Source: a virus (Duplodnaviria; Heunggongvirae; Uroviricota; Caudoviricetes). Taken from it: DNA of 14,121 nt. The notes under the pieces are model-generated. The model was not told the DNA's origin. It saw only the letters and a program-made list of their open reading frames with translations, and searched no databases. The stretch lies in IMG/VR virus record IMGVR_UViG_2778261420_000023. The stretch is one strand, 5' to 3'. This document shows, piece by piece, positions 3,405 to 14,121 of this stretch (positions are counted from its first letter, which is position 1; every line of letters starts with the position of its first letter). Both the position numbers and the translations under genes were made by a program.

Positions 3405-4611
3405 CTTTTCTCCCTTTAATTTCCACAGTCTGTTTCCATGCCTGGCTGAACTCATCACCACCTTCACGCGGCGGCATACCCTCGCGTTCGCGAGCTTCGT
3501 TCGGATTCATGATCCCGCTCTTAATCCCTTTCTCATACGTGGCATAACGTTCGGTGGGTGTGGCGCGCAGTAAATCGGCTGAATCAAACTCAACCAGATA
3601 ACGGGTACCAGGTACGGGAGAAGTCACCAGCAAAGCGGCCTTGATTTGCTGTTCGAAGTTCGCCAGCCACGGGCGCATTGTCATGGTCAGAAATGCGCGG
3701 CTCGCCTCACTGAAATTGCTGTAGGTGCTGTTGCTGTATTCCTGAAGAAAAATCGGCGACACGTTGAACATCCTGGCGATGTCTTCAATGGAGAAGCGAC
3801 GGGAGGCCAGCCATTCCGCATCCTGGTTACTCATCCCCAGCTGCCTGTAATCCATGCCCCCTTCAAGGATTGGCGTTTTTCCGGCATTTTTCGCCCCCTT
3901 GTAGCGTTCCAGTGCGTCTAATGCCTGTTTACCTTTCACGCCGTCCAGCCATTCACCTGACGTGATAATCCCTGCCGCCATCATGCCATCTTTCATAATG
4001 CTGGCTCCGTGACGCTGTTGAGCAAGGCCAAGCCCCAGCGCCTCACGGCAAATCGTGACGGGGGAACGCCCCAGAAAGCCATCATCCGAGGCATAGCGGA
4101 GATGCAGAACTTCTTCCTGTAAATACGTGCGCACCGTTCCTGTACAGGGTTCGGTGATGGTATAGCGGTATTTGTGTGTGCCTGTGCGTTCCGGTACAAC
4201 ACACCCCGGCGCATAAGGATGAAGTGATTTTGGCTGCCCGTCCCGCCCCCACTCAATAACCGCATAGGCGTTACCGTTCAGCAGGCAGTGACGCATCATT
4301 GTGCGTTTAAACTGGTAAGGTGTCAGGCACGAATTAGGCTGCTCATTCAGCAGAATATCTACCGGGTGACTGTCCAGCCATTCCCGCGCCTCTCTGCCCT
4401 TATCATTGCGTACCAGATACAGGTAACACGGCATCGTGGCCACCGCCTCAGCGATGACAGAAACCGCGTTCATCACAGCAGGCAATGATTCAGCCGTCCC
4501 GGCAGAAACATATTCTCCGGATCCGGTATTTGGTACACCAGACAACGCCAGAAAATCATCAATGGACAGGTTACGCAGATCGCTTTTTTTACGACTAAAA
4601 GGCCACCACAT
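3397..4611 (-). CDS. Portal protein (HK97-family)
   Basis: About 400 aa, positioned between protease and connector; sequence resembles HK97-type portals by recall. Start set at ATG 4611 (M31, MWWPFSRKK...), immediately after the protease stop at 4613. Confidence 0.85.
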   Translation of the reverse strand: MWWPFSRKKSDLRNLSIDDFLALSGVPNTGSGEYVSAGTAESLPAVMNAVSVIAEAVATMPCYLYLVRNDKGREAREWLDSHPVDILLNEQPNSCLTPYQFKRTMMRHCLLNGNAYAVIEWGRDGQPKSLHPYAPGCVVPERTGTHKYRYTITEPCTGTVRTYLQEEVLHLRYASDDGFLGRSPVTICREALGLGLAQQRHGASIMKDGMMAAGIITSGEWLDGVKGKQALDALERYKGAKNAGKTPILEGGMDYRQLGMSNQDAEWLASRRFSIEDIARMFNVSPIFLQEYSNSTYSNFSEASRAFLTMTMRPWLANFEQQIKAALLVTSPVPGTRYLVEFDSADLLRATPTERYATYEKGIKSGIMNPNEAREREGMPPREGGDEFSQAWKQTVEIKGRKDE

Positions 4612-5222: not shown

Positions 5223-6368
5223 TTACTTGCCAGCCTGAATTTCCAGAATCTTGATGGCGTTCGAATCCACCACACCACCGCCCAGATATTTCTGGGTATA
5301 GATGTTAATGAATCCAGGCTCGCTGAAATCCGGACGGGTACGCGTACCGGTTTTATGGTCAACGATGAAATAACCGCGCTTAAAGTCACCGACTGCAATC
5401 ACACCGTCTGGCATAAATTCCAGATATTCAACCGGAAGCCCCAGCAGAGAATCAGGATCACCAGCCTGTAAACGATCGCGCCAGATGTAATCACCAGTGG
5501 CATTTTTCAGTTTTTGTGCGGAGGCGGCTGTATTTGAGTTCATCACCCATACAGCTTTTTTGCGGTACTTATTGCGCAGCGTAAATTTCAGGTCAATCAG
5601 CATATCGGCGCTGAGACTGCCAGTCACTTTTTTCGTCTGGAGCGTACCGAAAGGACGGGTTTTGTCATTATCCGTAGCGCGCGGGAAAGTCAGGAAACCT
5701 TTGGCTTTTTTCTCGCCATCACCGGAAACCAGATCCGTTTCTTCGGTATCAACGAAAGTGTCGCCAATTTCAGAAGATAACCAGCCCATAATATCGACTT
5801 CGGAAAAATCGATAATTTCCTGAGTGGTTTTCGGGTAAGCGTAGATCGGATACAGGCGGATACTGACTTCATTCAGTTTTGGGGTTGCCGTCTGGTTACG
5901 TGCCGCACCTTCTTCGCCGTGTCCCACGACCGCACCCCCGGCAGAAACCAGTTGCTTAAATTCATTACTGTGAATGGTTTTAACAGTACAGATTTTACGC
6001 ATCACCGACTCATCAGAAAGCTGACGCATAATTTCTCTGTTCAGTTCCGGGATAACCGTATAACCACCATCTGCCGGAACACTGCCGGACAGGTTGCGGG
6101 TTTCCCCGGTCAGAATGTAAGAGCGTAGCTCATTTTTGGTGATTTTATCTTCGACGGGAACACCAGGCTGGTTACGTTCTTCATCAGCCACAGACTCGAG
6201 GCGGGAAATTTCTGTGTCGAGGGAATCGGCTTTTGCACGCAGTTCATCAAACTGTTTGCCTTCGTCATCGGTTAGACTGCGGTTTTCACTGTCGGCTTTT
6301 TCCAGCAGGGATCGCATCTGGTTTTTCAGGGCGGTTTTTTGCTGGCGGAGTTCGATTAATTTCTTCAT
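5223..6368 (-). CDS. Major capsid protein (HK97 fold) with N-terminal delta/scaffold-like domain
   Basis: 381 aa; coiled-coil-like N-terminus (ELRQQKTALKNQMRSLLEKAD...ELRAKADSLDTEISRLESV) followed by a body typical of HK97-family capsids. ATG at 6368. Confidence 0.88.
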   Translation of the reverse strand: MKKLIELRQQKTALKNQMRSLLEKADSENRSLTDDEGKQFDELRAKADSLDTEISRLESVADEERNQPGVPVEDKITKNELRSYILTGETRNLSGSVPADGGYTVIPELNREIMRQLSDESVMRKICTVKTIHSNEFKQLVSAGGAVVGHGEEGAARNQTATPKLNEVSIRLYPIYAYPKTTQEIIDFSEVDIMGWLSSEIGDTFVDTEETDLVSGDGEKKAKGFLTFPRATDNDKTRPFGTLQTKKVTGSLSADMLIDLKFTLRNKYRKKAVWVMNSNTAASAQKLKNATGDYIWRDRLQAGDPDSLLGLPVEYLEFMPDGVIAVGDFKRGYFIVDHKTGTRTRPDFSEPGFINIYTQKYLGGGVVDSNAIKILEIQAGK

Positions 6369-6562
6369 GAAGGTTTTCTCGCATTGGTTAAGATTCAGGA
6401 CGTGAAACCAACACGGGGGGAGCGCCGCCCGACACTCTCGGCATCTCGCAGATCAACCCGGCATCGCGCAGGGGGTCAGGCGGCATTGTGGCGGCTCACG
6501 TCTGAGTGCCACACGCCAACATATACATAAAAATCAGTATGTAAACATCAACCAGAATCACC

Positions 6563-6589
6563 GAACAACCTGGAACAACCACGAACAAA
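6563..6589. promoter_or_regulatory. Three GAACAAC repeats at 10-bp spacing (TTGTTC on the coding strand) upstream of the capsid operon
   Basis: gaacaac at 6563-6569 and 6573-6579, gaacaaa at 6583-6589. On the minus strand they lie between the upstream terminator and the capsid start, beside a weak promoter-like stretch; candidate activator sites. Confidence 0.5.
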
Positions 6590-6603
6590 TAATTTACAAA
6601 ACC

Positions 6604-6630
6604 TGAAAAAAGACCCGGAAAAAATCCGGG
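6604..6630 (-). terminator. Rho-independent terminator separating the replication/regulation module from the capsid operon
   Basis: Minus-strand RNA: CCCGGA-UUUUU-UCCGGG hairpin (6614-6630) followed by UCUUUUUU (6604-6611); 12 nt downstream of the stop of gene 6642..6890. Confidence 0.6.
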
Positions 6631-6641
6631 CCTTTATCGCT

Positions 6642-6890
6642 TTATTGTTTCACTGGCTCCCGCATTCTGCGTCTTATTTTCCACAAATATTCGATCATCG
6701 CTTCCACCTGCTCACGGTTGGTTGCGAAAATTTCCCCGGTCAGTGAGCTACGCAGAAAATCATGATGATCCACAAAAAATAACGCATCGGAAGAAAGCAA
6801 CCGACGATATTTTTTTGCTGTCGTGGTTTCCAGATCATCAAAACCATGAAGCTTTTTATGTTGCTGAACTTCTTCAAATGTCACTGGCAT
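6642..6890 (-). CDS. Hypothetical protein
   Basis: 82-aa ORF; ATG at 6890 preceded by AAGGGGGA SD; overlaps the 3' end of the ProQ/FinO-like gene by 10 nt. Confidence 0.5.
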   Translation of the reverse strand: MPVTFEEVQQHKKLHGFDDLETTTAKKYRRLLSSDALFFVDHHDFLRSSLTGEIFATNREQVEAMIEYLWKIRRRMREPVKQ

Positions 6891-7423
6891 GTATCCCCCT
6901 TTGCTGCCCGGCGCTGGCGCTTGTGCTTCTCATTCAGCACCATCAGCCGTGTTTCTGCCTCCTGCTGTTCCTGTGGTGTCACTTCCCCACATGGCTGGCC
7001 TTTCAGGTCGTAACGTGCGCCACCAGCTATCAGGGCGCGGTAATAGCGCGGAGACTGCGCATAGGATGCCAGCGTCGCACGTAATACCCCCGACCCGAAT
7101 GCCAGCCCCCTGACGGCGATATCCTGCATCAGGTCGTCGAATATCCCCACCTTAAGCGGCTTCGGTGCTTTATGGCTGAATAAGTCAGGCCACATCTCAG
7201 TGAGGCGGTTAACGCGTCGGCGGTTTTTGCGCTGCCTTTTGGTCATATGCTGCCACGGTGTCGCCCCTGCGGTCTTCTGTTTGCGGCTCTGCTGTGCGTT
7301 CTGATTATCGGGTATCACTTTATGCGCCGATGTGGTTTTATCCTGCTCTTGCGCCGCCTGCGTCGTTTTCTGCGGCGTGCCGTAAATGCCTTTCGGCTTC
7401 CGGTTAATGGTCAGCGTTGTCAT
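6881..7423 (-). CDS. ProQ/FinO-domain RNA-binding protein (RNA chaperone-like)
   Basis: PKPLKVGIFDDLMQDIA...LRATLASYAQSPRYYRALIAGGARYDLKGQPCGEV aligns by eye with the E. coli ProQ N-terminal FinO domain (PLKIGIFQDL...LRSALRLYTSSWRYL...RVDLDGNPCGEL). Basic N- and C-terminal extensions. ATG at 7423 with GGGGGAAGG SD. Confidence 0.75.
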   Translation of the reverse strand: MTTLTINRKPKGIYGTPQKTTQAAQEQDKTTSAHKVIPDNQNAQQSRKQKTAGATPWQHMTKRQRKNRRRVNRLTEMWPDLFSHKAPKPLKVGIFDDLMQDIAVRGLAFGSGVLRATLASYAQSPRYYRALIAGGARYDLKGQPCGEVTPQEQQEAETRLMVLNEKHKRQRRAAKGDTCQ

Positions 7424-7459
7424 GCCTTCCCCCGTAATTACTCTGTTCGCTGTTGTGAA

Positions 7460-7885
7460 TTAAAACGGTATGTTATCCCCGTACGGGTCATCGTGCTGGC
7501 TTGTCTGTTGTTTTGCCCTGTTCAGTGCGTCAGTGGCCTGGCCCTGTTGACCTTTTTTGCCGCCCGGTCGCGCCGTTCGCGCACTGATTACGCTGTCTGC
7601 AATAACCTGCCAGCCCTGCCGCGTTTCCCCGTTCTGGCCTGTCCACTGGCTCACCTGCATGTTACCCGCCACGCTCACCAGTTCGCCTTTGTGGTGTTTT
7701 GCCAGTGCGTCGGCCTGTCTGCCAAACGCCAGGACAGATAACCACATCGTCGCCGTTCCGTCATCTGCCTGGCTGCACGGCAGGGGAACCGCCATACTCG
7801 CCATCGCCATTTGTGTCCCTTTGCTGGTGGTCTTTAACTGCGGGTCAGCCACCAGCCGCCCGTAAGCCGCTATCTGTGCTGTCAT
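7460..7885 (-). CDS. Single-stranded DNA-binding protein-like (divergent SSB)
   Basis: OB-fold-like pattern (IAAYGRLVADPQLK...WLSVLAFGRQADALAKHHKGELVSVAGNMQVSQWTGQNGETRQGWQVIAD) parallels E. coli SSB, with a Gly/Gln-rich linker and acidic C-terminal DNIPF tail (compare DDDIPF). ATG at 7885 with GGAGAA SD. Confidence 0.65.
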   Translation of the reverse strand: MTAQIAAYGRLVADPQLKTTSKGTQMAMASMAVPLPCSQADDGTATMWLSVLAFGRQADALAKHHKGELVSVAGNMQVSQWTGQNGETRQGWQVIADSVISARTARPGGKKGQQGQATDALNRAKQQTSQHDDPYGDNIPF

Positions 7886-7949
7886 GCTGTCTGTTCTCCG
7901 GTTTTAACGTTGATTGTTACGCTTGTTTACACCCTTACGGTGAAATTCT

Positions 7950-8072
7950 GCGGGTTATAATCGCACTTTTGCGGGTTATAACTGCCGTTTTGCGGGTTAC
8001 GTGCGGGTTATTGATTTCCTTTTTATTCATGCAGTTAATGCACTTATACACAGGATAACCCGCATAACCCGC
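7950..8072. repeat. Candidate replication origin: four direct GCGGGTTA iterons, an AT-rich spacer and two inverted copies
   Basis: Direct copies start at 7950, 7971, 7992 and 8003 (21/21/11-bp spacing); AT-rich 8011-8050; inverted ATAACCCGC at 8055-8063 and 8064-8072. Immediately 3' of the primase/helicase gene. Confidence 0.6.
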
Positions 8073-8095
8073 AACTTTTTACATCACACAGGGGG

Positions 8096-10219
8096 TTAAT
8101 CTTCTGCCTCAGGCTGGAACATCAGCACGTAAAAAACATGCTGCTTCCCCCCAATTTTGCTGAGCGCCTTTTTCTTGTAACGGCGGTCGTTCCCCTTTTC
8201 CAGCATCCCCGCCGCATCAAGCGCTCTTGCAAAATGCGACGGGTTAAATCCCTGTGCGATCTCACCTTCAAACACATGCGGGAACGTGTAAAAACGGAAC
8301 TCGTCATCTTCGTTTCTGATACTCCCCTTTCTGTATCCGGCAAGTTCTTTAATCGGTAAATCACGCTCGTCGGTGTTGGGCCACGGAAGGTATCTGCTGA
8401 ATCCGAACGACGCTAAAAAAGCCTCTGCCTGTTCAACCATCTGTTTAAATTCCCTGTTACCCGTGCCGAACTCCTTCACCCAGGCATTAAAATTATGCTG
8501 TATGGCATCGCGGCACGCCTGAACATCCCAGCCAGTAATATGACCGGACAACACTAACGCCGCCTCAAGCATGGCAAATCGCTCCCCCACACGGTGAACC
8601 TGTTCGCCGTAGCTCTCCGGTATCAGGTTGCGCCACCGTTCACGGCATGCCCTTACCGTGTCCTTTGCTTCCTGCTGGTGGTTTGCCAGCCATTTAACCC
8701 ACTCTCGACCCGCCGCCCCGTGATTTTCTGTCCAGGCATCCTTTAACGCGTCTGCGTGCGCCTTTCCGGTGCTGTATTCGTGAAACTGCGTGGCTTTTTC
8801 CATCGGCACGTTAAGCAGGCGGACAAGCTGCCCCGCCTTGACTTTTATCCCCTCCGTTTTGAGGAATGTTTCAACGTCCATTTCTCCGGTGCTGATTGCC
8901 ACCGTGCGCCAGTGTTTGATCTCCCTGTTGCCGCCGTCCTTCGCCCCCTGTAATTTCCCCGAACCGTTAAACAGCGTATAGGCTGACGTGGACACCTCCC
9001 GCGCGTTTCCGGCCTGACCTATTTCATCCAGGGGTAACAGCCCGTCATTATGCGCTTCGGCCTCGTTGGCGATACCTAACGCCGTGCCGTACCAGGTCAG
9101 CCGTTGTGCGTCCGGCTCTCCCCATAAACTGGATGCGATGTTCTGTGTGGTGGTTTTCCCTGCCGATGACTGTTCGAAAAGATGTACCCCGAAGCCGTCA
9201 GCCCCCACCAGCCCGATTAATGGTGCGGATAACGATACCGCCACACCCAGCATCATGGACGGATTACCACCAGCCAGCCGCGCCACGGTATCGCGCCAAC
9301 CCTCCGCCGTTCCTGCCACGGAATAGCCATTAACAGCAGCCGTTTTTCCGGTAAACAGGGCTGGCTTTTCGCAATCACCAATGACCGAACCGTCCGGCAT
9401 GATGTACGCGCCAAAATGCCAGCCCGTTGTTGTGCTTAACTGCCATTCCTCATGGCTTCCGCTTAACTGCATCCAGTCAGCCAGGATAGCCCTGTATTTG
9501 CCGTTAGTTGTTACGTTCAGTCCGTGGTCTTTCAGCAGCCGCCAGCCGTCACGGTCGCCAATGCCACCGCACGGAACCGCCATTGTGATGACTTCATGGT
9601 TTGCTAATTTTTTCCAGCGCATCACGCGGTAATGCTCTTTACCGATTGTTCCCGTTCCCAGTAGTTCAAGCGGGGAACATAACCACGTCTCAGGCCGGAT
9701 AATTTCGCCTGACTGCTTATCCACTTTTGGCGTTACCCAGAAAACACCATCGGCGCGACTTTCAACGCGGGGCTTTAATTCATCATCGCCCTGGCTTTCT
9801 GTAATTTTTTTCTTTAAAGGCAACACCAGACTTTCCCCGCGCTCGTATTCGTCTTTGAGGCGAGGCAACTGGTCGGATAAATCCGCCGGGCTGGTGTCAG
9901 TTATCCCCGCGTATTCGTATACGGTCTTCACGCCAGCCACAGCCAGCAACGTGACGATCTGTGTAAGGCTACGTTCAGTGATGTGCCCTGCGCGGTAAAT
10001 ACGCACACACTGACGGCTATCATCAATAATTTGATAACCGGTAATATCTTTCAGGTGTTCATCTGACAGAACGACAGGTGGCACATTGTCGGCGGCAATA
10101 TGCTTACCTGCCCATTCCTGCCACTCTTTCGCATGGCTCCACGCATCACTACCTGCAAAGATGATTACCTCCGTCATTTTGTCGGCTGGCTGGTGCTTTA
10201 AGTTTGGTGCGCGCTTCAT
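8096..10219 (-). CDS. Primase/helicase-like replication initiator with P-loop NTPase domain
   Basis: 707 aa; Walker A (EQSSAGKTTTQ) and Walker B-like (GLLPLDEIGQ) motifs; N-terminal region may be a toprim/primase-type domain (EVIIFAGSDAW, unverified). ATG at 10219 overlaps the upstream stop (ATGA). Confidence 0.75.
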   Translation of the reverse strand: MKRAPNLKHQPADKMTEVIIFAGSDAWSHAKEWQEWAGKHIAADNVPPVVLSDEHLKDITGYQIIDDSRQCVRIYRAGHITERSLTQIVTLLAVAGVKTVYEYAGITDTSPADLSDQLPRLKDEYERGESLVLPLKKKITESQGDDELKPRVESRADGVFWVTPKVDKQSGEIIRPETWLCSPLELLGTGTIGKEHYRVMRWKKLANHEVITMAVPCGGIGDRDGWRLLKDHGLNVTTNGKYRAILADWMQLSGSHEEWQLSTTTGWHFGAYIMPDGSVIGDCEKPALFTGKTAAVNGYSVAGTAEGWRDTVARLAGGNPSMMLGVAVSLSAPLIGLVGADGFGVHLFEQSSAGKTTTQNIASSLWGEPDAQRLTWYGTALGIANEAEAHNDGLLPLDEIGQAGNAREVSTSAYTLFNGSGKLQGAKDGGNREIKHWRTVAISTGEMDVETFLKTEGIKVKAGQLVRLLNVPMEKATQFHEYSTGKAHADALKDAWTENHGAAGREWVKWLANHQQEAKDTVRACRERWRNLIPESYGEQVHRVGERFAMLEAALVLSGHITGWDVQACRDAIQHNFNAWVKEFGTGNREFKQMVEQAEAFLASFGFSRYLPWPNTDERDLPIKELAGYRKGSIRNEDDEFRFYTFPHVFEGEIAQGFNPSHFARALDAAGMLEKGNDRRYKKKALSKIGGKQHVFYVLMFQPEAED

Positions 10220-10530
10220 TTTGCCTTTCCCCGTTCACGAATAATTTCACGTACTGCCTTAATGCGTTCCATTCCTGTAACGCGCATGATTCTGTCGATG
10301 TCGCTTAATTCTGCTGGTGGTGCTTTGCTTACCAGGGTGAACTCCCTTTCAAAGCGCATATGCGACGACACGCAGGGATGCGCATAACCTTCGCGGATAT
10401 AGGTCACGCGAAAATCATCGACGGTTTTAATCGTTATCGTGCTGCCGTATTTATCCCGGAAAATATCGCCGGGGCGGATTTCAGGCCGAGCGGGGCCGCT
10501 GGCAGTAAAGCCAGAATTTTTCTTTTTCAT
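10216..10530 (-). CDS. Hypothetical protein
   Basis: 104-aa ORF with ATG at 10530, translationally coupled to the primase gene; no motif recognised. Confidence 0.5.
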   Translation of the reverse strand: MKKKNSGFTASGPARPEIRPGDIFRDKYGSTITIKTVDDFRVTYIREGYAHPCVSSHMRFEREFTLVSKAPPAELSDIDRIMRVTGMERIKAVREIIRERGKAK

Positions 10531-10990: not shown

Positions 10991-11192
10991 GTCTCACCCC
11001 CTGAATATTCGCGTTAATCATTCCGGCACGTTCTGCGAGTTCCTGTAATGATTCCCTTGTTGCGACAATGGCTTCATCTGGCAGGTGGTAATTACACACC
11101 ACGCGACCTTTATCCACATTGACCAGTAGCTGCCCGGTAAATTTCTCACGAAACTGAACGCGGTTAAGGTCGGTAAGTGACAGGTTAATCAT
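10980..11192 (-). CDS. Hypothetical small protein
   Basis: Start placed at ATG 11192 (MINLSLTDLN...), preceded by GGGGGAAG SD; 8-nt overlap (ATGATTAA) with the upstream ORF stop. Confidence 0.45.
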   Translation of the reverse strand: MINLSLTDLNRVQFREKFTGQLLVNVDKGRVVCNYHLPDEAIVATRESLQELAERAGMINANIQGVRHVQ

Positions 11193-11388
11193 GGTCTTCC
11201 CCCTGGCGAATACGGGCAGCAAATACCATCACGCAGCCATCAGGAGATTGCTGACGCGCTTCCTGTTCGCTGGTGGCCTCAATGGTAATCACGCGCGGTT
11301 GTGCCGTGCTCAGGGCGATAAAACGCCAGATGTATTTATTCAGGTTGTACGAGTCCCGCCCTTGCGGGTGTCTGGTATAATTTCTCAT
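11185..11388 (-). CDS. Hypothetical small protein, first gene of the leftward operon
   Basis: 67-aa C-terminal segment of the long track ORF, starting at ATG 11388 with GAGG SD 6-7 nt upstream; the rest of the 370-aa ORF is judged spurious. Confidence 0.35.
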   Translation of the reverse strand: MRNYTRHPQGRDSYNLNKYIWRFIALSTAQPRVITIEATSEQEARQQSPDGCVMVFAARIRQGEDHD

Positions 11389-11464
11389 AGCTGCCTCGAT
11401 ACGCTTTCTATCGTTGGTGGTTAGACGCCCTGCATGTGTGCCACCACTGCGGGGCGTTGTTGTT

Positions 11465-11514
11465 TGGTGCATTGCACCATTCGGTTTTAACCTATCAATA
11501 AGTGAATCGCACTT
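11465..11514. promoter_or_regulatory. Palindromic operator-like sites in the divergent control region
   Basis: TGGTGCA-T-TGCACCA (11465-11479) and AAGTG-AATCG-CACTT (11500-11514); the core TGAATCGCAC recurs at 11548-11557 overlapping a TATACT -10-like hexamer (11543-11548) upstream of the plus-strand RHH gene. Confidence 0.5.
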
Positions 11515-11578
11515 CAAGCCTTTCTCTGAAATTTTTTTTGTGTATACTGAATCGCACCAACTTAGAGAGGATTCAGTA

Positions 11579-11758
11579 ATGGCAACAGGTTCAACAAATA
11601 ATAAGTCGCAACAGTTAAATGCCAGATTCCCGCATGATGTTGTTGCAGACTTAGAAAAAAATTTAGATGAAGGTGAAAGCAAGGCGCAATTTATAGTTAC
11701 TGCCGTTAAAGGTGAGATCAAACGCCGCCAGCGCCGCAAGGCCAAAGAGCAGGAGTAA
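11579..11758 (+). CDS. Small ribbon-helix-helix-like DNA-binding protein (candidate repressor/switch protein)
   Basis: 59 aa (MATGSTNNKSQQLNARFPHDVVADLEKNLDEGESKAQFIVTAVKGEIKRRQRRKAKEQE): beta-strand-then-helices pattern typical of Arc/MetJ/CopG proteins, basic tail. ATG at 11579 with GAGAGG SD 8 nt upstream. One of only two plus-strand genes called. Confidence 0.5.
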   Translation: MATGSTNNKSQQLNARFPHDVVADLEKNLDEGESKAQFIVTAVKGEIKRRQRRKAKEQE

Positions 11759-11815
11759 CCATCACCAGCGCCGTGGTGTAAGGTATTACGGCGCATTGCT
11801 ATGCAGGACAACACA

Positions 11816-11989
11816 ATGACCGATAAAGAATTGACCAAAACATTATCACCGACACGGAAAAGACGGCGCAGAAAGATAGAGCATGAATCAGAAAGATTCG
11901 CGCCATGTGCTTTTGCCCTTGAGCAATTCCTTAAAGAGTACAGGGAAAAGCGCTCATTGCAGGTATGGCAACGAACTGAACCAGACTGA
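11816..11989 (+). CDS. Hypothetical small basic protein
   Basis: 57 aa from ATG 11816 (AGGA 8 nt upstream), downstream of the RHH gene and upstream of a plus-strand terminator; no motif recognised. Confidence 0.3.
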   Translation: MTDKELTKTLSPTRKRRRRKIEHESERFAPCAFALEQFLKEYREKRSLQVWQRTEPD

Positions 11990-12055
11990 TTGCATTGCCC
12001 ACCAGCCGCAAATGTGGCATTGTTGGTGATGCTTTTGTTTTCCCTTGTTCCCACT

Positions 12056-12085
12056 GGCGACCCTTTTGCGGTCGCCTTTGTTTTG
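12056..12085 (+). terminator. Rho-independent terminator of the short plus-strand unit
   Basis: GGCGACC-cttttgc-GGTCGCC stem-loop (12056-12076) followed by TTTGTTTTG. Confidence 0.55.
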
Positions 12086-12122
12086 CCTGTTATCCGGCAA
12101 TAGTGGCGCTTCACCACACGGT

Positions 12123-12208
12123 TGATATAATTCCCCTGCACTGATCCATTTTTTTCGCAGCAGGTTAATTGTTCAGAAAGGCGGTTCCTTATCGGGGCCG
12201 CTTTTTTT
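12123..12208 (+). ncRNA. Candidate small RNA unit: extended -10 promoter plus intrinsic terminator with no ORF between
   Basis: TGATATAAT at 12123-12131 matches extended -10 consensus TGnTATAAT; an 8-bp-stem hairpin (12181-12201, two G.U pairs) is followed by seven T (12202-12208). Predicted transcript about 70 nt, antisense to read-through from alpA. Confidence 0.3.
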
Positions 12209-12349
12209 ATGCCTGAAAATACCCGATAACATGGCTTTTTAGTTTCACCAGGACGAACGAAGCCCCGCCCCTGTTCGGGCGTATATCCAGTATTCATGGT
12301 TAGATCTCTGTGTTAGTGGATGGGTGGCGGCGGTGCGCCGCCAGCCTGA

Positions 12350-12553
12350 TTAGTGAACTGCCTCGCGGCTGTCCTTCCATGCCAGAACTTCGGATAAAGA
12401 CCAGCCAACGGAACGACCGCCGAGTTTACGCCGTGATGGGAATTGTCCAGTCTTCTCCAGGCGATACCGACATGAGCGGCTCAGGCCTGTAAGTTGCTGA
12501 CATTCTTTTTCACGTATAAAGCGATCAGCGCTTAACACTATTGCCTCCGTCAT
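12350..12553 (-). CDS. alpA: AlpA-family transcriptional regulator / excisionase-like protein
   Basis: 67 aa; LTGLSRSCRYRLEKTGQFPSRRKLGGRSVGWSLSEVLAWK matches the AlpA helix-turn-helix signature (TGLSRSTIYRL..G.FP....LG.R.VGW...E...W). Confidence 0.85.
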   Translation of the reverse strand: MTEAIVLSADRFIREKECQQLTGLSRSCRYRLEKTGQFPSRRKLGGRSVGWSLSEVLAWKDSREAVH

Positions 12554-12600: not shown

Positions 12601-12810
12601 AGAGTGATGAATGGCAAATATTGGTGACGGTCGTTTTACAGATATGGGGTAATTAGAATAAAAATACTTTTAATTCATTGTGATGTAGTAGCGTAAAATT
12701 TTGCTTTTACGCCTTTTTTACATATTTTTAAGAGTGATTCGCCAGTGTATAAAAAAACAGTATACATATAAAAATCAAATGGTTATGAATGAGTTTGATT
12801 TTTAATCCGC

Positions 12811-12891: not shown

Positions 12892-14121
12892 TTATATTTC
12901 TCTGGCTATTGGCAGTGTGGTTACGTTTTCGTGAGTACCTGCCAGTATCTCTAACCGCTCTGTCCACATGTCCAGCGCATTACGTTTCGCATCGAGATAA
13001 CGGGAGTGGTTATAGACTCGCTGCATCCCTGGCATCTGGTGAGCGGTGAGTTGTTCGACAATATGCGGATCCACGCCTAAATCATTCAGCATCGTGGTAA
13101 ACGTGCGCCGTATATCGTGTAGTGACCAGTGCGGATGGTTTAATTTTTTGTGCGTGAATCTGCCGTATTGCGACACGCTGGCTTCCTGTTTCAGTTCCCC
13201 GAGTAATAGCCCTGTGTGTCGGTTCTGCTCCACCAGCCGTGTGACGAACGGTAAAATGCTTTCCGGTATTGGCCTGAATATGGCTACCTTCGTTTTGCTG
13301 TGCTCCTTCGGTACTGTCCAGAGCATTTCCTTAAAATCCCACTCCCTGATCTCCGACAGCCTCAGTTCTCCGGTTCGGCAACCAAACACAATCAGGAGGC
13401 GGATTAGTGCGCTGTAGTAGGGCGGGAATATTTTTTTATCCAGCGCCTGTAATAATTCGCCCAGTTCTTTGTTACTAAGCACGCGTTCGCTTATGCCTGG
13501 TTTTTTACCAACGTCCACCACGTTGAGATCATCCAGAGCGTTACTGACGGCATAGCGGCGTTTACGACAGAATTTAAGCGCCTGTTTGCACGCCTGCATC
13601 ATGTGACCAGACGTTACGGGGGATTTTTTGCGTATCCGGTCAAAACAGGCCAGCCAGTGACGTAATTCGCATTTATCCAGTGGCATGTTACCGATGTGCT
13701 GTATGACGTGATTATTCAGGCGACTTTTCAGGCATACATAATCGACACGGTTTTCCTTTACGTGCGTTTCCAGCCAGTAACTGATCGCATCGCCAACCGT
13801 TACGGGTTTTAACGCTTCCTGCACAGTGTAGTTCAGTTCATGACGTGGGTTTTTCCCTTCTGCCAGCCATGCACGACACTTTGCGGCTTTTTCCCTGGCT
13901 GCTTTAAGGCTCAGATCGGGATAGTTTCCCAGCTTCAGACGTTCCGGTGTGGTATCCCTTCCCGTTCCAGCCCTGTAGGTGAAGTACCAGGTCAATTTAC
14001 CTGATGTTAAATATTTCACGCTCAGATTACCGCCATCGCTATAGAACGTATTTTTCTCCGCTGGCTTACCATAAAGTTTTCTTAACAATGTATCGTTCAG
14101 TTTGTTAAGCGCTCTGCTCAC
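12892..14121 (-). CDS. int: Tyrosine site-specific integrase, P4-type with N-terminal arm-binding domain
   Basis: 409 aa; N-terminus resembles the DUF4102 arm-binding region of CP4-57 IntA; catalytic signature present (GCRTGELR, HDIRRT, LTAHQ, RVYNHSRYL). The start is GTG at 14121..14119 on the window edge, so the true start may lie beyond the window. Confidence 0.88.
   Translation of the reverse strand: MSRALNKLNDTLLRKLYGKPAEKNTFYSDGGNLSVKYLTSGKLTWYFTYRAGTGRDTTPERLKLGNYPDLSLKAAREKAAKCRAWLAEGKNPRHELNYTVQEALKPVTVGDAISYWLETHVKENRVDYVCLKSRLNNHVIQHIGNMPLDKCELRHWLACFDRIRKKSPVTSGHMMQACKQALKFCRKRRYAVSNALDDLNVVDVGKKPGISERVLSNKELGELLQALDKKIFPPYYSALIRLLIVFGCRTGELRLSEIREWDFKEMLWTVPKEHSKTKVAIFRPIPESILPFVTRLVEQNRHTGLLLGELKQEASVSQYGRFTHKKLNHPHWSLHDIRRTFTTMLNDLGVDPHIVEQLTAHQMPGMQRVYNHSRYLDAKRNALDMWTERLEILAGTHENVTTLPIAREI

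Follow-up and report, generated by a model that had tools for sequence, protein, structure and literature searches.

The window analyzed here is the whole of a 14,121-nucleotide stretch of DNA (IMG/VR virus record IMGVR_UViG_2778261420_000023), which is an E. coli phage-inducible chromosomal island of the capsid-forming kind (cf-PICI). Within it we followed up a gene for a 180-aa FinO-domain protein, which lies next to a gene for a single-stranded DNA-binding protein (SSB). The FinO-like gene is an optional cassette consisting of an open reading frame (ORF) alone, it is under purifying selection and is maintained though dispensable, and its product forms a separate clade which is nearer to FinO and FopA in build than to ProQ. 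Both ORFs had been put forward in an earlier reading of the DNA letters (the sequence-only reading), and both were located on the minus strand, which is the transcribed strand for nearly the whole window, at the positions where that reading had placed them (6881-7423 and 7460-7885). The features on which the argument depends are listed below.

6881-7423, minus strand: gene for the FinO-domain protein, 180 aa
7460-7885, minus strand: SSB gene, 141 aa, with an oligonucleotide-binding (OB) fold, a short linker and a C-terminal DDPYGDNIPF tip
6907-7460, unstranded: FinO-gene cassette, a 554-bp indel relative to the island at locus L019
6642-6890, minus strand: orf82, 82 aa, function unassigned by Pfam (phrog_1957, E 4e-36)
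7886-8095, unstranded: putative replication origin in the 210-bp gap between the primase-helicase and SSB genes, from a repeat search
8096-10219, minus strand: DUF927 primase-helicase, 707 aa, the core replication gene, upstream of the SSB gene (PF06048, E 1.4e-45; PHROG 1139 DNA primase, E 3e-174)
6611-6633, minus strand: strongest operon-strand intrinsic terminator, AGGCCCGGAUUUUUUCCGGGUCU then UUUUU, just past orf82
11990-12085, plus strand: conserved element, about 95 nt long and running antisense to the main operon, with stem-loop 1, a linker and the terminator GGCGACC...GGUCGCC UUUGUUUU

An optional cassette between ssb and orf82

The island KFu014 (locus L019) is also capsid-forming, is 91-95% identical to the window on both flanks of the FinO-like gene and is annotated without a ProQ gene. 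When window positions 6300-8100 were compared with L019 by blastn, 6626-6906 and 7461-7918 matched at 91-95% and nothing between them did; window positions 6906 and 7461 are 4 bp apart in L019 (4676 and 4681), where the SSB gene almost abuts the 82-aa ORF. The FinO-like gene is a clean 554-bp indel of the ORF only between ssb and orf82, with no non-coding DNA of its own, and homology among gene-bearing islands begins about 18 bp upstream of its ATG. Since orf82 is present after the SSB gene in L019, it belongs to the backbone of capsid-forming islands and not to the FinO cassette. PerC takes the orf82 slot in other islands, and the possibility that orf82 is a cryptic PerC was ruled out, as there was neither BLASTP similarity nor a Pfam match. 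A second insertion was noted in L019, where a 168-aa gene on the opposite strand (3873-4379) is inserted exactly at the site of the window's operon terminator (6601-6626); both this site and the ssb/orf82 junction act as insertion hot spots.

To avoid bias towards the FinO-like gene, eight islands were sampled by way of an unrelated conserved element. Five of the eight carried an SSB gene without the FinO-like gene (EcCICFT073, O157 Z1835, ETEC4091, KFu014 and RIVM_C036204), while among the remaining islands BHD6 carried both genes and SCU-316 the FinO-like gene without an SSB gene. In APEC IMT5155 (L017, 4054-4571) a frameshift disrupts the FinO-like gene and the annotation contains no SSB; blastn found only fragments of ssb there, beneath an annotated frameshifted hypothetical ORF. 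By locus, the SSB gene occurs alone in L015, L016, L018, L019 and L020 and the FinO-like gene alone in L013 and L022, and in L011 a PerC gene lies between the two. Islands with SSB only, with FinO only and with both genes all occur, and the near-identical KFu014 is among those which lack the FinO-like gene; the pair are thus separate modules which occupy a variable position past the origin, and the basic life cycle of the satellite does not require the FinO-like gene. The sequence-only reading had placed both genes inside a replication module, and as to position this was correct, as they follow the DUF927 primase-helicase gene and the iteron origin on the same strand and precede the capsid module; the pattern of presence and absence among islands shows, however, that the FinO-like gene is neither a core member of that module nor tied to the SSB gene.

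Around this slot the islands have a common backbone, established from three homologues by exact sequence and from other loci, which comprises int, alpA, a variable Bro/AntA zone, icd, DUF4222, primase, origin, SSB and the FinO-like gene. The primase of FinO-gene islands is of either the DUF927 or the D5 type. Content downstream varies: the common E. coli islands have large genes without a Pfam match, those of Salmonella have PerC and assorted other genes, and the window and E. ruysiae have the capsid module.

The FinO-like gene was found by blastn in 1095 of 5426 complete E. coli genomes (about 20%), at 1565 places which were all chromosomal, with none on plasmids and up to 9 per genome. Across islands its ratio of nonsynonymous to synonymous substitution rates (dN/dS) had a median of 0.28 (range 0.22-0.43) and was below 1 in all 21 pairs; the median for ssb was 0.16. 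With ratios well below 1, both genes are real and not chance ORFs.

Family, fold and conserved residues of the two proteins

We regard the assignment of the two proteins to the FinO-domain and SSB families as close to certain. The ProQ/FinO family membership which had been claimed for the 180-aa protein was borne out by a hidden Markov model (HMM) search, in which residues 68-172 matched positions 5-108/109 of Pfam model PF04352 with an E value of 8.5e-24 and a score of 84.1 bits (cut-off 27). A phmmer search of the PDB returned the N-terminal domain of E. coli ProQ (7.7e-12) and FinO (6.4e-11), together with NMB1681, RocC and Lpp1663, and every solved FinO-domain structure was found by sequence search with the 180-aa protein. 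The protein had also been described as matching the ProQ core closely by eye. The homology is there but the closeness is not, with BLASTP giving 38% identity over 88 aa (E 2e-15) against a ProQ sequence entered by hand.

An AlphaFold2 (AF2) model built on 23 homologues had a block-mean predicted local distance difference test score (pLDDT) of at least 88 over residues 61-170 and was confident over residues 60-176, approximately. It contained helices at 62-77, 94-105, 111-122 and 125-133, strands at 136-138 and 144-147 and a further helix at 150-176, which agrees with the helical bowl and two-stranded beta hairpin of the FinO fold. The best Foldseek match to this model was FinO (1dvo, E 1e-6), followed by NMB1681 and RocC, and below 1e-4 only FinO-domain structures were returned. 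The domain build is a disordered basic N-terminal tail (residues 1-60, with disorder predicted for 1-54), the FinO domain (about 62-148) and the long C-terminal helix (150-176). The tail is rich in K, R and Q and is conserved in the family (MTxLTINRKPKGIYG ... TPWRHMTKRQRKNRRR). In the AF2 model the protein stops after the helix following the FinO domain, and the linker and Tudor domain of the ProQ type are absent.

Neither of the two relevant NCBIfam models reached its cut-off: the ProQ equivalog NF003434 scored 59 bits (cut-off 127) and the FinO model NF010317 scored 67.9 bits (cut-off 136), yet the latter was the best NCBIfam match. The likeness to ProQ does not extend to the build of the protein, which is FinO-like in its basic disordered tail and its lack of linker and Tudor domain. 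Of the 2110 FinO-domain clusters which a search of representative sequences returned at E <= 0.001, no more than 7 reached E <= 1e-30, which indicates a narrow clade. The distant loci found in a scan of GTDB genomes were two Escherichia loci only, and spread beyond the Enterobacteriaceae was not established by that scan.

By pairwise alignment the counterparts of ProQ residues K35, G37, R58, Y70 and R80 are K91, G93, R115, Y127 and R137. When 23 homologues of 55-92% identity were aligned, K91 was invariant and the other four were nearly so. Mutation of K35, R58, Y70 or R80 weakens or abolishes RNA binding by ProQ (PMC7192607), and in RocC the equivalent Tyr, Arg and Gly (Y87, R97 and G52) form a pocket for the 3'-terminal nucleotide of the terminator (PMC9674577). 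This 3'-end pocket (Tyr, Arg and Gly-turn) is kept in the island protein as Y127, R137 and G93. Membership of this family suggests RNA binding, and we consider it probable that the protein binds RNA 3' structures made up of a hairpin and a tail.

For the 141-aa protein the claim had been of an SSB-like OB fold with an acidic tail, and this too stood up to the HMM search, where the thresholds of both PF00436 (E 4e-16, 59.4 bits, cut-off 26) and TIGR00621 (62.7 bits, cut-off 53.95) were passed. It also matched PHROG 44 SSB (E 1.5e-39) and SSB entries in the PDB. Identity to the OB fold of E. coli SSB, using an E. coli sequence entered by hand, was 26%; in the same alignment the stacking aromatics W54, F60 and W88 correspond to W48, F54 and W81, and the W40 region was unaligned. 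The C-terminus (...HDDPYGDNIPF) consists of an acidic stretch and an IPF tip. This tip is found in seven of the eight island SSBs compared, the Salmonella copy ending in DDDVPF. In bacterial SSBs the acidic IPF tip recruits partner proteins. It is likely that the protein serves island replication, and a 2023 paper filed SSB with primase and origin as the replication zone of Gram-negative PICIs (PMC10111431).

The replication operon and the putative role of the FinO-like protein

The order of the operon is the icd-like gene, small ORFs, the DUF4222 gene, the DUF927 primase-helicase gene, the iteron origin, ssb, the FinO-like gene, orf82 and the terminator. The origin contains four TGCGGGTTAT iterons in direct orientation (7949-8011, spacing 21/21/11), together with an AT-rich stretch and two copies in inverted orientation (8055-8073), a layout typical of PICIs, and the region is 94% conserved in islands L002-L007. 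A strong Shine-Dalgarno sequence precedes each of ssb, the FinO-like gene and orf82, and the ORFs overlap or are separated by short gaps; the ATG of orf82 overlaps the last codons of the FinO-like gene, which suggests that the two may be translationally coupled. The terminator at 6611-6633 (-15.8 kcal/mol) was the best on its strand in a custom scan for hairpins with U-tails. The icd...primase-ssb-FinO-orf82 transcript probably ends here, and the terminator has the generic shape of a FinO-type ligand, for which it is a candidate only. Promoter-like sites on the operon strand were located upstream of alpA, icd and the capsid gene, with one more in the portal gene and one at the window edge, and their placement is only suggestive. 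The site at 6545-6518 on the minus strand (TTTACA, 16 nt, TATGTT) lies in the 273-bp gap from the operon terminator to the capsid gene, which agrees with a packaging operon under separate control. Read most simply, ssb and the FinO-like gene form the distal end of an induced replication operon, apart from the packaging operon.

We propose that after induction the SSB would coat the single-stranded DNA exposed at the origin by the island helicase, and that its host-like IPF tip may dock it onto the host replisome and repair proteins. The FinO-like protein would act as an optional, horizontally shuffled RNA binder, built like plasmid FinO/FopA, whose retained pocket would grip the 3'-terminal nucleotide of an RNA ending in a hairpin and U-tail. 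Once the operon is on, it could tune the island's own transcripts post-transcriptionally, either by binding and protecting terminator 3' ends or by aiding antisense pairing in the convergent alpA/ylcI regulatory region, and the result could be a feedback loop like that of FinO-FinP-traJ. It is typical of FinO-family proteins carried by mobile elements that they serve an antisense RNA which the element itself encodes (PMC9977716). We put this tuning role forward tentatively, at rather less than even odds, by analogy with FinO, with FopA and PcnR and their antisense control, and from the position of the gene in the operon; RNA binding itself, the RNAs targeted and the direction of any effect are all inferred.

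The most conspicuous candidate ligand is the 95-nt element at 11990-12085. It forms the 3' end of a plus-strand unit comprising a YlcI/YnfO gene, a 62-aa ORF and the element itself, between alpA and icd, and it was present in 15 of 15 distinct islands sampled (for example L002 4716-4845, L008 3823-3959 and L015 9991-10121). It belongs to no Rfam family. Its folding z-score against shuffles was -4.1 on the plus strand and -1.85 on the minus strand, and its terminator stem had one compensatory and six one-sided changes with zero breaks. By shape the element is a candidate FinO-type ligand only, and this shape, together with its convergence with the alpA transcript, makes a loop like FinO-FinP-traJ conceivable. 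The YlcI/YnfO-family gene (11579-11758, plus strand), whose product has no Pfam match and by eye is a possible ribbon-helix-helix protein, lies back to back with the icd-primase operon, with overlapping promoter-like sites (about 11598-11625, minus strand), and is convergent with alpA, a layout which resembles a repressor-and-operon switch. Terminator-like hairpins antisense to ssb and the FinO-like gene (plus strand, 7219, 7483 and 7529) were weak (-7 to -8 kcal/mol), and the one at 7219 lies over the sequence for the conserved basic peptide motif. We also discarded a FinP-like RNA opposite the alpA leader (plus-strand hairpin 12691-12712), as it was weak and AT-rich with no convincing promoter and was unconserved beyond the same island type.

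Several results weigh against the proposal that the protein tunes island transcripts. An Rfam scan of the whole window at E values up to 1 gave no match and no FinP-like RNA, and no RNA partner which co-varied with the FinO-like gene was found, the cassette being the ORF alone. A partner carried with the gene was rejected because of the precise indel relative to L019 and the start of homology so close to the ATG. The 95-nt element was rejected as a dedicated partner, since it is present in five gene-less islands and absent from the gene-bearing L013; moreover, its invariant core, the 5' half, is complementary to a Chi site carried by the other strand, and because the invariant sequence is largely this Chi site its conservation alone is no proof of an RNA role. 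The Ser-Lys helix N-cap (S53-K54 in ProQ, S70-K71 in RocC) is replaced by F109-G110-S111-G112 in the island protein, where the Lys is absent and position 111 is variable. In ProQ and RocC the N-cap contacts the hairpin backbone and matters for RNA binding (PMC7192607, PMC9674577), so its loss may point to a different binding mode or specificity, though the motif is not family-defining in Pfam. The promoter-like sites were not above chance (7 found, 13.6 expected). Finally, EcCICFT073, which is a characterized island described as a model Gram-negative PICI (PMC10111431), lacks the FinO-like gene, and any role of the protein must therefore be modulatory. The sequence-only reading had tentatively linked the protein to a candidate small RNA or antisense transcripts; co-occurrence did not support that link, and RNA-based control is, from family membership, reasonable but unproven.

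The protein could instead act outward on RNAs of the host or of a helper phage, competing with or supplementing chromosomal ProQ or binding antisense or immunity RNAs of the helper, so that the gene would be cargo like PerC and the outcome would be reprogrammed host physiology or virulence, or a manipulated helper. We think this possible but improbable. It would accommodate an optional ORF-only cassette without a cis RNA, and PerC-family genes adjoin and often overlap the FinO-like gene in several islands; PICI PerC homologues can affect expression of LEE, the locus of enterocyte effacement (PMC11773190). FinO domains recognize a generic terminator shape, ProQ and FopA bind many chromosomal and prophage RNAs (PMC9977716), and a recent survey classed the gene as a host-interaction accessory (PMC13612085). 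However, the gene lies inside the induced replication operon and has no promoter-like site of its own, from which the protein would be made mainly after induction, in a cell near lysis. No outward target was identified, and a defence-system role was rejected because none of the three proteins scanned matched a PADLOC defence-system model.

Some islands do contain known RNAs near the switch region. Rfam C4 and isrK, RNAs related to the P4 CI and seqA immunity RNAs, were located between alpA and icd in four islands, L008 (4791-4878), L009 (4065-4758), L014 (6236-6424) and L021 (8742-8930), and C4 and isrK relatives have been noted in the Bro zones of Gram-negative PICIs (PMC10111431). In some relatives they replace the ylcI module and lie on the operon strand, and the int-alpA RNA motif was also seen in L002 and L013. 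The FinO-like gene is present in each of the four islands with C4/isrK, and a search of five gene-less islands recovered neither RNA. The protein might on this basis be a chaperone of a P4-type immunity RNA (a C4/CI-like RNA with isrK/seqA-like targets) which controls read-through into the replication operon, the copy in the window being left over from the loss of its RNA partner. We judge this quite unlikely. At least five distinct gene-bearing types lack C4/isrK (the window, L002, L003, L011 and L013), the gene shows purifying selection in islands that lack these RNAs, and isrK is catalogued as an Hfq-binding RNA. The association involves a minority of gene-bearing islands, and in so small a sample it is not significant and cannot serve as evidence.

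Joint action of the SSB and the FinO-like protein on nucleic-acid strands in replication or recombination, for example FinO-type annealing or strand exchange on primer RNA or single-stranded DNA at the origin, appears more doubtful still. In most gene-bearing islands the gene is immediately after or near ssb and a few hundred bp from the iteron origin, and the FinO family has repeatedly been linked to DNA metabolism (PMC9977716), but each gene is found without the other, the conserved pocket has specificity for a 3'-OH ribose end (PMC9674577) and the fold has no documented DNA-related activity. That the gene is a decaying passenger without current function, as its frameshift in APEC IMT5155, its absence from many sister islands and the many truncated database entries might imply, is scarcely credible given dN/dS of 0.22-0.43 in 21 of 21 pairs, key residues invariant or nearly so in 23 homologues of 55-92% identity, an intact ORF with a strong Shine-Dalgarno sequence and occurrence in 1095 of 5426 complete genomes.

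Island layout, significance and known systems

The assignment of the window to the cf-PICIs follows from its gene content and the published working definition, which describes elements of about 10-18 kb with integrase, regulation and replication modules and their own capsid, protease, portal, connector, HNH, TerS and TerL genes, tail and lysis genes being absent. Pfam matched int, AlpA, primase, capsid, prohead protease, portal, HNH, TerS and TerL; the head-tail connector was identified by RefSeq annotation only, without Pfam support, and there were no tail or lysis genes among the ORFs of the window. The same element in strain E700025 is about 14.4 kb and is inserted in yifB, beside the ilv operon. 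The remaining features are as follows.

12892-14121, minus strand: tyrosine integrase (Pfam)
12350-12553, minus strand: AlpA (Pfam)
after AlpA in transcription order, minus strand: icd-like ORF and several small ORFs
10216-10530, minus strand: DUF4222 protein (Pfam)
after orf82: packaging module of major capsid, prohead protease, portal, head-tail connector, HNH, TerS and TerL

A 370-aa ORF at 11185-12297 (minus strand) appears to be an artefact, and RefSeq annotates a pseudogene there. Its start (MNTGYTPEQGRG...) is that of the AntA antirepressor gene in sister islands L002 and L003, where Bro-N is next; AntA/Bro-N is deleted in the window, and the AntA stub now reads in frame into the icd-like ORF (about 11185-11535) through sequence which is non-coding and antisense. 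Chi sites (GCTGGTGG) are in excess, with 12 in 14.1 kb (737, 4858, 7020, 7823, 7849, 8674, 9205, 9267, 10313, 11269, 11999 and 13230) and 0.5 expected from dinucleotide shuffles, in which the largest count was 4. Eight of the 12 are on the operon strand, and the excess may protect linear or concatemeric satellite DNA from RecBCD. In L002-L007 (10.5-18 kb), which are common E. coli PICIs with the primase-SSB-FinO backbone, three very large genes (about 840, 600-690 and 820-920 aa) without a Pfam match stand in place of the capsid module and may constitute a system for defence or another kind of cargo.

The annotation of the two genes is not new: both belong to known families in public genomes, and in each of the genomes listed RefSeq names them 'ProQ/FINO family protein' and 'single-stranded DNA-binding protein'. 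In the literature we found no functional study of the FinO-like gene, and two papers on capsid-forming PICIs mention neither ProQ nor FinO nor SSB. What we describe is an uncharacterized, abundant clade of a well-known family in a setting which is unstudied for that family, and it would not surprise a specialist. FinO-domain proteins on plasmids are the textbook case of RNA-based control of mobile-element spread, and Gram-negative phage satellites have so far been explained almost wholly by protein regulators (AlpA, PerC, Rpp). A selected yet dispensable FinO-type gene in about one fifth of E. coli genomes provides an entry point to RNA chaperones in satellites, for which the window island and KFu014 are a natural isogenic-like pair differing by this gene, and opens the further question of its effect on host ProQ networks during induction. 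It is conceivable, although we would not expect it, that the gene represents a distinct satellite-specific FinO-domain lineage, narrow but abundant, which is switched on by helper induction and acts on one defined RNA, either an island antisense or terminator RNA setting the induction switch or an RNA of the helper or host. Such a lineage would be a further class of enterobacterial FinO-domain regulator beside ProQ, FinO, FopA and PcnR and the first RNA chaperone known in phage-satellite biology.

Among known systems, FinO of F-like plasmids (1dvo) gave the best Foldseek match and the best NCBIfam model, and it shares with the island protein a basic N-terminal extension, a FinO domain without Tudor and an operon-distal gene on a mobile element with an upstream activator (traJ for FinO, alpA in the island). 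Identity is, however, about 30% (67.9 bits against 136), and FinO belongs to a plasmid tra operon with FinP as partner, whereas the island gene is always chromosomal and a FinP-like RNA was looked for without success; in the island protein Gly-Ser-Gly stands in place of the Ser-x-Lys N-cap region of FinO. FopA (YafB, of IncI plasmid pCol1B9) and PcnR are likewise small FinO-domain proteins of mobile elements with basic N-terminal regions of their own, and they control replication of their element via antisense RNA (PMC9977716). This likeness is by build and not by measured sequence. The island gene differs in being optional within its element family, and no antisense RNA against the primase gene or origin region was found in the island.

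ProQ of E. coli and Salmonella has a homologous FinO domain with the five residue counterparts kept, but the island protein lacks the linker, the Tudor domain and an equivalent of K54, scores 59 against 127 bits and is island-borne in about 20% of genomes. RocC of the Legionella RocC/RocR system (7rgu) shares the fold and the counterparts of Y87, R97 and G52, from which recognition of a terminator hairpin would be expected; it differs in its extensions, in an identity of about 25% and in the N-cap Ser70-Lys71, which is lost in the island protein. The island SSB resembles E. coli SSB and plasmid and phage SSBs in its OB fold, apparently in three of the four stacking aromatics and in an acidic tip ending in IPF, and differs from E. 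coli SSB in its 26% identity, its much shorter linker (141 aa in total against 178) and in the equivalents of W40 and H55, which are apparently not kept. The replication zone of EcCICFT073 has the same gene order around the origin and an SSB of the same family with a ...DDPYGDDIPF-type tip; its primase is of another type and it has no FinO-like gene, and to this layout the window adds a capsid and packaging module.

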